Shown one piece after another: positions 3,001 through 5,721 of a stretch of DNA of 5,721 nt; position 1 is the stretch's first letter, and every line of letters begins with the position of its first letter. This DNA is from a virus (Duplodnaviria > Heunggongvirae > Uroviricota > Caudoviricetes), in IMG/VR virus record IMGVR_UViG_3300029085_000025; one strand, 5' to 3'. Made by a program: the position numbers.

Positions 3001-5721
3001 CATCAATGCCTTTAACCAGATGGAGAAACAGCTTTCAAATCCCTCTGTACTGAGCGACGTTGCACATAACGCCAGCGTTCTCTATTCCTACATTTCATCA
3101 ATTCATCAGGTCTGGCTGCAGCAGCTTTATCCCATGTTGGCAAAAGCCGAATCCCCGCTGGCTGTAAGTCTGTATGACCGCATCAACGACGCGGCGCTAC
3201 TGGCCAGTCTCATAAATTTGTCGCTGAACCCTTCAGAGGTAAGGGGGCGCAAATGATCCGGAATATTTTCAAACGGTTTACCAATCATACTTTCCGTTGT
3301 CCTCGTCCGGGTCAGTGGTACACCACGCCTGCAGGGCATGTTCTACGTGTTAGCCTGGTTGACCGTGAATGTCAGAAGGTGGTTTGTGAACCGCTGGGCC
3401 GTAATTACCGCGTCAGTATGCCGCTTATAGCCTTTTGCTCCGGAAAAATGTTTAAGCGTCTGGGAGGTGTGGCGTGAACTGTTTTCAGTTTGTGTGCGGA
3501 TGTGCTTTCGATAACCCGATTCAGCGCCTGATTATGTTGCGTGTTTTGATGTCGGGTTCTTCAGACGGTGAAGGCGAGAGAGTTATTGATCATCAGGTGC
3601 TTGCTGATTTCTGCTGTTGTTCTAAGCAAGCGATATTCAGGGAAACCCTGGCACTGGAAAGAGCTGGTTATCTTCATATCCGAAAAATTGCAACGCTTAC
3701 TATTGATGCAAAAGCCAGACTACAACCTGCGCGTGGCTACACAATTCTCATGCTGCGGAAGGAGGTTGTATGAGCCGTTACGCCCCCACACCGGAAGTTA
3801 TGGCTATTGGTCAAATTAATATTTCCGGCAATGTTACACCTGCGACCTGGTGGAAATATATTCGACTACCCAGTGGGCGTCCGGATGCGACGGCTATCGC
3901 TCTGCTTTCAGAGATCGTTTACTGGTACCGCCCGACAGAGGTCAGGGATGAGCACACCGGAGCGTTGCTGGGATATCGCAAGCGTTTTCAGGGCGACAAA
4001 CTGCAAAGAAGCTACCAGGCGTTTGCTGAGCAGTTTGGTTTCGGGAAAAGGGAAACCGCAGATGCGCTGAAGCGTCTGCGCGATGCAGGGTTTATTACTC
4101 TGGATTTACGCACGGTGGAAATGCTCGATGGGGTGAAATGCAGCAATATTTTGTTTGTCGGGATCAACCCACAGGCAATTGCGGCCATCACCACACCTTC
4201 TTCTGTTTCGCTAGAAAGTAACAGCAATAATGCAATCAGCGATACAGCTATTACGTTAAAACGGAACACCCCCCGACGTCATAACGGAACAGGGGATACG
4301 CCGAATGTTGATACAAATACAGAGATTACTACAGAGATTACAACGGAGACTAAAAACACTATTGGCGCATCCGCTGACGCGTCTGCACCAGCGCGTTCTG
4401 CCCGACAGGAATATTCACCGGAATTTGAACAGGCCTGGCAGGAATATCCCAAACGTGCTGGTGGTAATTCAAAATCCGCCGCTTTTAAAGCCTGGAAAGC
4501 CCGAATCAGGGAAGGTGTGACACCTGAAACCATGCTCGACGGTGTGAAACGCTATGCCGCCTGGGTGCGTGTCTCTGGAAATACCGGTACCCAGTTCGTG
4601 AAGCAGGCGTCGACGTTCTTTGGTCCGGATCGTCATTTCGAAGAATCCTGGGAAGTTCCTGCGGTATCTGCAGCCAGACGCGAGGACCCGTACTTCAAAG
4701 CCAGTTACGACAACGTGGACTACAGCCAGATCCCGGCAGGATTCAGGGGGTGAGCATGAGTATTTTGAATGACGTTCAGAAATTCATTGAAGCCCATCCG
4801 GGGTGTACTTCAGGTGACATTGCGGATGCTTTTGCTGGTTACTCACGACAGTGCGTTCTGCAGTCAGCAAGCAAGTTACGTCAGAGTGGCCGTGTGGCTC
4901 ACTGTTGTGAAGGGAAAACACGCAGACATTTCCCACACCAGGCTGAGATATCGCAGGAGGAGAAACTGCAACCTGTTCTTGAAACCATACCTGTGAGCAA
5001 TTTCTATGTCGGCACTAACGACCCCTGGGTGATTTTGTGCCTGACCCGTCAGGCTGAAGAACTGGAGTCCAGGGGCTTATACCGTCGTGCTGCAACGGTG
5101 TGGATGGCGGCATTCCGTGAAAGCCACTCCCAGCCAGAACGAAACAATTTTCTGGCGCGTCGTGAGCAGTGTTTACGGAAAAGCAGCAAGCGCGCTGTAT
5201 CGGGTGAAGAGTGGTATCTGTCAGGGAATTACGTGGGGGCTTAATGACGACGTTAACTCAATGCCAGCAGCAGGTGCTGGATATGCTGATTTCTTACCAG
5301 AAAGAACGTGGCTTCCCGCCAACCAATCAGGAGGTGGCTACCATGCTGGGATACCGTTCAGTGAATGCAGCGGTGGAGCATCTTCGCGCACTGGAGAAAA
5401 AAGGCGTCATCACGATAAAGCGTGGCGTGGCCCGGGGCATCACGCTTCATACCGCGGTGAAGGACGACGACAGCGAGGTGGCCGGGATTATCCGCGCACT
5501 GCTTGCTGGTGAGGAAAACGCCAGGCTGCGTGCAGCCCACTGGTTACATGAGAGGGGGCTGAAAGTATGAAGCTGATTCTGCCTTTTCCACCCAGCGTGA
5601 ACACCTACTGGCGACACCCCAACAAAGGGGCATTTGCTGGTAAGAGCCTGATAAGCGCGGCGGGGCGAAAATTCCAGAGTGCGGCGTGCACAGCAATAGT
5701 TGAGCAGTTACGTCGTCTGCC

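Follow-up and report, generated by a model that had tools for sequence, protein, structure and literature searches.

A YfdN-type winged-helix and PerC-domain protein encoded directly after the replication initiator in a lambdoid phage module without a helicase loader gene

The DNA analysed here, referred to as the window, is a stretch of 5,721 nucleotides from a virus of the class Caudoviricetes (IMG/VR record IMGVR_UViG_3300029085_000025), in which the gene for the replication initiator Rep is followed immediately by a gene for a protein of 162 amino acids. An initial annotation, made from the sequence alone, had described this protein as a winged helix plus PerC-like regulator standing in the replication module where a helicase loader is expected, and had proposed for it either a role in prophage-to-host regulatory cross-talk or an unconventional accessory role in replication. 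We find that the gene encodes a YfdN-type member of the PerC family which is neither a helicase loader nor a substitute for one, and that the module has no loader gene of its own. The explanation we prefer, to which we assign a probability of about 0.5, is that the protein is a small, dispensable DNA-binding regulator of the early operon whose PerC domain would act like PerC and the Pch proteins. Coordinates of the gene, its parts and its neighbours are collected in Table 1.

The assignment of the protein as a winged helix joined to a PerC-like domain proved correct. In the profile search that had been proposed as a check, the Pfam PerC family (PF06069) matches residues 98-150 with 38.3 bits (E = 1.7e-9), above the gathering score of 22.6 bits, and the PerC domain taken alone scores 40.4 bits against the same profile. 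PHROG 1324, labelled 'transcriptional activator', covers residues 1-161 (E = 1.4e-74) and places the protein in the YfdN-type subfamily, and BLASTP aligns it with PchE of enterohaemorrhagic Escherichia coli (EHEC) at 40% identity over 52 amino acids. The PerC core motif, A-x2-LE-x2-G-[LF]-[YFW]-RRAA-x-W, is present and reads AEELESRGLYRRAATVW in the window protein versus AEELEAKGFYRRAAARW in PchE; across 37 divergent sequences L103, R111 and A112 do not vary, and A100 and A113 hardly vary. An AlphaFold2 model has two domains, a winged helix-turn-helix (wHTH) and a three-helix bundle, with fold matches to wHTH and TPR-like structures, respectively. The predicted N-terminal domain has the three helices and beta-hairpin wing of MarR/ArsR-like proteins. 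Between the domains the model has neither helix nor strand across residues 61-89, with per-residue confidence (pLDDT) below 50 at residues 64-83, and this linker varies in both length and sequence in alignments, the window's own linker sequence being atypical. No solved structure was matched by sequence, either for this protein or for Rep. The protein ends in a short motif, W-x-L-[AS]-G-[NR]-[YF]-x-G, that recurs in most two-domain members down to about 25% identity and that PchE does not have.

PerC and PchA/B/C are single-domain proteins of about 90-105 amino acids. That description does not fit the window protein, which at 162 amino acids carries a winged helix and a linker in addition. PerC, encoded on the pEAF plasmid of enteropathogenic E. 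coli, and PchA/B/C, encoded in EHEC prophages, share with it the PerC Pfam family, the core motif and the residence on a mobile element, but the winged helix, the linker and the WYLSGNYVG motif are missing from them, and their genes do not follow a replication gene.

A similarity to a second family of small regulators was also recorded. Residues 96-142 of the PerC domain match the ANR family profile NF033650 with 22.6 bits (E = 7e-5), below the curated cut-off of 32. ANR (AraC negative regulator, Aar) proteins, which bind AraC-type regulators and H-NS, are small and helical like the PerC domain, although at about 60 amino acids they have no DNA-binding domain; the sub-threshold match hints at a kinship between these two groups of small helical regulators.

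The gene is a real coding gene and both of its domains are under purifying selection. Compared with 50-odd distinct homologous genes, the ratio of nonsynonymous to synonymous substitution rates (dN/dS) is 0.35 overall; the wHTH stands at 0.20, the PerC domain at 0.27 and the C-terminal tail at 0.12, and the linker at about 1.0. The Rep stop codon at 4751-4753 lies directly upstream, and a GTG at 4750 provides an alternative start that would give 164 amino acids and a GTGA overlap with that stop codon. RefSeq relatives are annotated as starting at the equivalent of this GTG. At the other end the TAA overlaps the ATG (5244) of the next gene as TAATG, so that Rep, the PerC-like gene, a gene for a LexA DNA-binding domain protein and the RusA gene form one tightly packed run, and a consensus scan found no promoter-like or terminator-like site beyond chance flanking the PerC-like gene. 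It is co-transcribed and translationally coupled with the early genes.

This gene is already known and annotated; it belongs to the YfdN family, which is common in lambdoid prophages. The window protein is 88% identical over its full length to YfdN of E. coli K-12 (b2357, in the cryptic prophage CPS-53/KpLE1), 86% identical to orf40 of phage SfV and 66% identical to sb43 of ST64B, all three of which are of the same family and effectively its orthologues. In K-12, yfdN is flanked by yfdO, a replication gene remnant, upstream and by yfdM, a methyltransferase remnant, downstream. A probe of 601 nucleotides over the gene hit 2681 of 5426 complete E. coli genomes, where nearly every hit carries the label 'PerC family transcriptional regulator', and the gene is also found in phages SfV, SfII, SfIV, ST64B, mEp460 and 2H10 and in Stx2c phages. 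An exhaustive HMMER search of 1.84 billion cluster representatives returned only 99 related clusters, about 35 of them full-length two-domain proteins at 25-47% identity, and a profile search of a 5.8-billion protein set listed only close relatives. The winged helix, the PerC core and, for the most part, the C-terminal motif are common to these roughly 35 divergent proteins, and the architecture of two domains holds in homologues as distant as about 25% identity. The gene call itself is therefore of minor interest, this being a very common prophage gene with its family assignment already in databases. In the literature we found no study testing the function of any YfdN-type protein; apart from its treatment as a PerC homologue, described below, yfdN appears there only in indirect entries from overexpression screens.

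A loader gene is absent from the window, as had been claimed. Scans of the window's open reading frames (ORFs), from cI to the LexA-like gene, against Pfam, PHROG and NCBIfam gave no match to the P, DnaC/IstB or DnaB families, and with E. coli DnaC and a lambda-type P as BLASTP queries the ORFs of the window and of 95 related loci yielded no match. The accompanying statement that a loader is to be expected at this place was misleading: a module with an initiator only is common, occurring in SfV, ST64B, mEp460, Stx2c phages and cdtI, and an absent loader is typical of this initiator type. The useful outcome is in this sense a negative one: to read the gene as standing in for a loader would be a mistake, and in a module of this type a 'missing loader' is nothing unusual.

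We also considered and rejected the PerC-like protein itself as a helicase loader. Small, helical and made of two domains, it has no AAA+ fold and shows no sequence or profile similarity to loaders, and with lambda P, the DnaC/IstB AAA+ proteins and the DnaD-type co-loaders it has only the gene position after the initiator in common. Replacement of a loader by this protein is very unlikely, the gene being neither mutually exclusive with a loader nor indispensable. In two loci (L299 and L334) a distant wHTH-PerC homologue stands directly after a DnaC-like loader sharing 51% identity with E. coli DnaC. In phage cdtI, described as inducible in the title of a paper (Asakura 2007, cited in PMC5136569), only codons 1-26 of the gene are left and Rep runs straight into dam, and in Stx2a_WGPS2 the gene is split by IS629. 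Natural absence of the gene was also met in IMG/VR, where two scans for the C-terminal tail pattern of the initiator (loci L103-L220 and L221-L340) sampled contigs that are mostly close relatives, with the consequence that the co-occurrence figures are not phylogenetically independent counts. After initiators ending in …QIPxGFRG, as Rep does, the 108 contigs among the matches listed have the wHTH-PerC gene next in 98 cases, dam in 7 and a DnaC-like gene in 2, so that Rep is followed by dam directly, without a wHTH-PerC gene between them, in at least 7 of the 108. After initiators ending in …EIPxGFRG (100 contigs among the matches listed) a Ren-like gene follows directly in 52 and a DnaC-like loader comes first in 38, two of these 38 being L299 and L334.

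If the protein is a regulator of the kind we favour, the early rightward operon would express it alongside the replication genes as soon as the repressor is gone. The winged helix would tether it to DNA, the PerC domain would act as it does in PerC and Pch, and the protein would adjust how phage genes, and incidentally host genes, are transcribed during lytic development or establishment. TPR-like three-helix units commonly mediate protein contacts. In the published model, Pch proteins activate promoters by relieving the silencing that H-NS/StpA/Hha complexes impose on them (PMC4764244). YfdN-type proteins would on this account be a widespread and presumably DNA-tethered form of the PerC/Pch regulators. 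Four points weigh against it. We found no experiment on YfdN-type proteins, and DNA binding, targets and an effect on transcription are what we infer. The winged helix is missing from Pch proteins, so that they and the YfdN-type proteins may work differently. An unpublished observation quoted in PMC4764244 is that H-NS was not co-precipitated with PchA. Finally, the tight pairing with DnaT-tailed initiators, seen in the IMG/VR counts above and persisting in Kosakonia at about 25% identity, is not something that a generic regulator explains.

Cross-talk from prophage to host, which had been proposed, is in our view unlikely to be the main role of the protein. In this reading it would activate virulence regulons of the host, or others gained horizontally, within the lysogen, in the manner of PerC and the group-1 Pch proteins. 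Membership in the PerC family points towards it, as does the ability of group-1 Pch proteins to activate ler, although activation of LEE1/ler is documented for PerC/Pch (PMC5931665, PMC4764244) and not for YfdN-type proteins. Overexpressed K-12 yfdN was among the clones altering glycogen accumulation (PMC2853380), and authors who called yfdN 'the K12 unique PerC homologue' deleted it as a precaution before testing pch genes in K-12 (PMC5931665). Set against these observations is the place of the gene inside a repressor-controlled early operon with no nearby promoter in the consensus scan, on account of which it should be silent in a stable lysogen. The gene is moreover present in K-12, in about half of the complete E. 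coli genomes as judged with the DNA probe, and in prophages of Kosakonia and Enterobacter, plant-associated Enterobacteriaceae being among its hosts. PchD and PchE, which are not group-1 proteins, have minimal or no effect on ler (PMC5931665). PchE (ECs_1588, prophage Sp7) resembles the window protein in being encoded after replication-type genes (primase and single-stranded DNA-binding protein), and its overexpression represses curli and raises flagellar expression, but it has 90 amino acids and no winged helix; identity of the window gene with pchE was rejected on the ground that PchE is a single-domain protein of that length.

A further possibility is suggested by position. Lambda has ren in the slot that comes after the replication genes, and the YfdN-type gene is best regarded as one more occupant of it. 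Elsewhere the slot and its approach read O, P, ren in Sakai Sp8, Rep, DnaC, DUF1627, Ren-like in Shigella phage 75/02 Stx, and Rep, Ren-like in phage Tritos. Lambda Ren and the Ren-like proteins share with the window protein not only the slot but also a small size and an N-terminal winged helix, and a Ren-like winged-helix protein follows the …EIPxGFRG initiators either directly, as in the contigs counted above, or after DnaC and DUF1627. The window gene could then be a positional counterpart of ren and take part in exclusion or anti-exclusion among phages. A match to PHROG 142 ('Ren-like exclusion protein') does exist, weak and limited to residues 1-64 (E = 0.0027). BLASTP against three Ren-like proteins, however, gave nothing for two and E = 0.34 for the third, and an hhalign probability of 18% amounts to generic winged-helix similarity. 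The C-terminal halves are unrelated, Ren having a helix with a conserved CRECR-x-S motif where the window protein has its PerC domain, and the PerC-like gene has no match in PADLOC, which covers defence systems. Homology to Ren is doubtful and we retain a positional analogy only; a Ren-like function is improbable.

Two readings tie the protein to replication. In the one closest to the initial proposal it would be a replication accessory factor or unconventional loader, serving as an adaptor to host DnaB-DnaC or clearing nucleoid proteins from the origin (ori). The gene starts always within a few nucleotides of the initiator stop codon, and in 90 of 92 loci the end of the upstream neighbour is no more than 60 nucleotides from its start. 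Even where the protein is only 24-47% identical, in Citrobacter, Enterobacter and Kosakonia, the two genes remain paired, the …QIPxGFRG-tailed initiators are followed by the wHTH-PerC gene at the frequency given above, and no loader was found by BLASTP with DnaC and lambda-type P in those modules. Yet the protein has no AAA+, P-like or DnaD-like features, and the losses of the gene in cdtI, in Stx2a_WGPS2 and in the contigs with Rep directly before dam tell against an accessory role, as do the homologues after a DnaC-like loader. Three different initiators, of 327, 272-285 and 313 amino acids, precede copies that are 95-97% identical to the window protein; these initiators represent two C-terminal core types, and their origin-binding parts are not alike. 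In one locus (L015) the homologue has no initiator beside it at all. With a sample dominated by close relatives, the co-occurrence can reflect the shared ancestry of a mosaic block. On this evidence an unconventional accessory role is quite unlikely.

The other reading makes the wHTH-PerC protein a dedicated partner of DnaT-tailed initiators that would act jointly with them at the origin and be required only conditionally. It might, for example, bind near ori and remove silencing of the H-NS type, after which the DnaT-like tail of the initiator would bring in host DnaB-DnaC. A Rep and YfdN-type pair with overlapping stop and start codons is kept from E. coli to Kosakonia; we give this reading little credence. 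As a lead for further work, the mimicry of the DnaT tail together with the near-constant Rep/wHTH-PerC pair is better than the gene itself.

DnaT is a primosome protein thought to bring in DnaB-DnaC. The similarity of the Rep terminus to the extreme C-terminus of E. coli DnaT, which emerged from BLASTP of Rep against DnaT (Table 1), extends well beyond the window: nearly all of 61 distinct Rep proteins encoded upstream of the PerC-like gene in 90 loci end in …DYSQIP[A/T/E]GFRG. The same tail is borne by three unrelated C-terminal core domains, and relatives with the window-type core can end in a different tail, …GFSEQDYGQSDCNW; the tail thus behaves like a portable short motif. It may be one that recruits a host replication protein. 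We found no paper describing a DnaT-like tail on phage initiators. The last 20 residues of DnaT are a flexible tail (PMC5778457), and the mechanism by which DnaT recruits DnaB-DnaC is still called unknown (PMC13377028). Phages with this module presumably rely on host DnaB-DnaC by way of the initiator. The tail is also present on initiators with an adjacent DnaC-like gene, including that of phage 75/02 Stx, as well as on the initiator of phage Tritos, and its occurrence beside a DnaC-like neighbour means that it is not simply a loader substitute. Phage initiators that share only the DnaT tail would offer a simple handle on whether the tail is a recruitment motif. The C-terminal domain of Rep is labelled 'DnaD-like helicase loader' by PHROGs, and the structure model of that domain is mediocre.

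The linker of Rep contains iteron-like direct repeats. The D1 repeat, TACAGAGATTAC, occurs in three copies, two of them in tandem, and is accompanied by ACGTTAAAACGGAACA / ACGTCATAACGGAACA; the repeats encode a TEITTEITTE stretch. By analogy with ori-lambda, which lies inside the O gene, they are a candidate origin.

Table 1. Features of the 5,721-nucleotide window, in order of position.
Feature	Position	Strand	Remarks
CI-type repressor	514-1203	-	
Cro-like helix-turn-helix (HTH) gene	1301-1561		
CII/CP76-like gene	1554-2111		
Ash-Rha fusion	2108-3256		382 amino acids
99-amino-acid HTH protein	3474..3773	+	PHROG 4617 'replication initiation protein', N-terminal part only, E = 4e-29
Replication initiator Rep	3770..4753	+	327 amino acids; N-terminal HTH region, linker, C-terminal 'DnaD-like / phage C-terminal' domain
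Iteron-like direct repeats in Rep linker, candidate origin	4243..4341	.	repeat families D1, D5
Rep C-terminal tail DYSQIPAGFRG	4718..4750	+	shared with the far C-terminal end of E. coli DnaT, PDSQIPPGFRG (Rep and DnaT compared by BLASTP)
Shine-Dalgarno-like AGGGGG	4745..4750	+	5 nucleotides before ATG 4756; read from sequence
YfdN-type PerC-family gene	4756..5244	+	ATG 4756 to TAA 5242-5244; 162 amino acids plus stop
Predicted wHTH domain	4756..4935	+	residues 1-60
Linker	4936..5022	+	residues 61-89; fast-evolving, without predicted secondary structure
PerC domain	5023..5205	+	residues 90-150; three-helix TPR-like bundle (predicted)
C-terminal motif W-Y-L-S-G-N-Y-V-G	5206..5241	+	residues 151-162; low-confidence structure
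LexA DNA-binding domain protein	5244..5570	+	108 amino acids, without S24 peptidase domain; PF01726, E = 2.9e-19
RusA resolvase gene, start	5567..5721	+	cut by window end; sequence MKLILPFPPSVNTYWRHP; annotated RusA in relatives

Downstream of the PerC-like gene the window differs from most of its YfdN-type relatives in the absence of a dam gene. The order in relatives is Rep, wHTH-PerC, a methyltransferase of varying type, a LexA-DNA-binding-domain-like gene and RusA, and most of this order is kept in prophages of Citrobacter, Enterobacter and Kosakonia, in which the PerC-like protein is 24-47% identical. In most relatives, including SfV (L003) and K-12 (L096), a gene of about 650 bp for a dam-type N6-adenine methyltransferase stands between the PerC-like and LexA-like genes; distant relatives have other methyltransferases there, of 219 to 727 amino acids, and the window has none. 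A LexA-like gene was found by BLAST after the PerC-like gene in three distant loci (L008, L010 and L014), and similarly placed ORFs of about 110 amino acids occur in two more (L012 and L013); the distant loci with such a gene come from Citrobacter, Enterobacter and Kosakonia. The LexA-like protein of the window, lacking the S24 self-cleavage domain, would not be cleavable.

Upstream of Rep, the 99-amino-acid HTH ORF has an ATGA overlap with the Rep start. Among close relatives it is found only with the window-type initiator of 327 amino acids, the one distant exception being a Kosakonia locus (L014, 37% identity). An ORF of 74 amino acids lies between it and the Ash-Rha fusion. The fusion protein begins with an N-terminal extension of about 100 amino acids, which is followed by an Ash-family domain joined to a Rha domain, and its relatives are either proteins of 278-387 amino acids or split ORFs.

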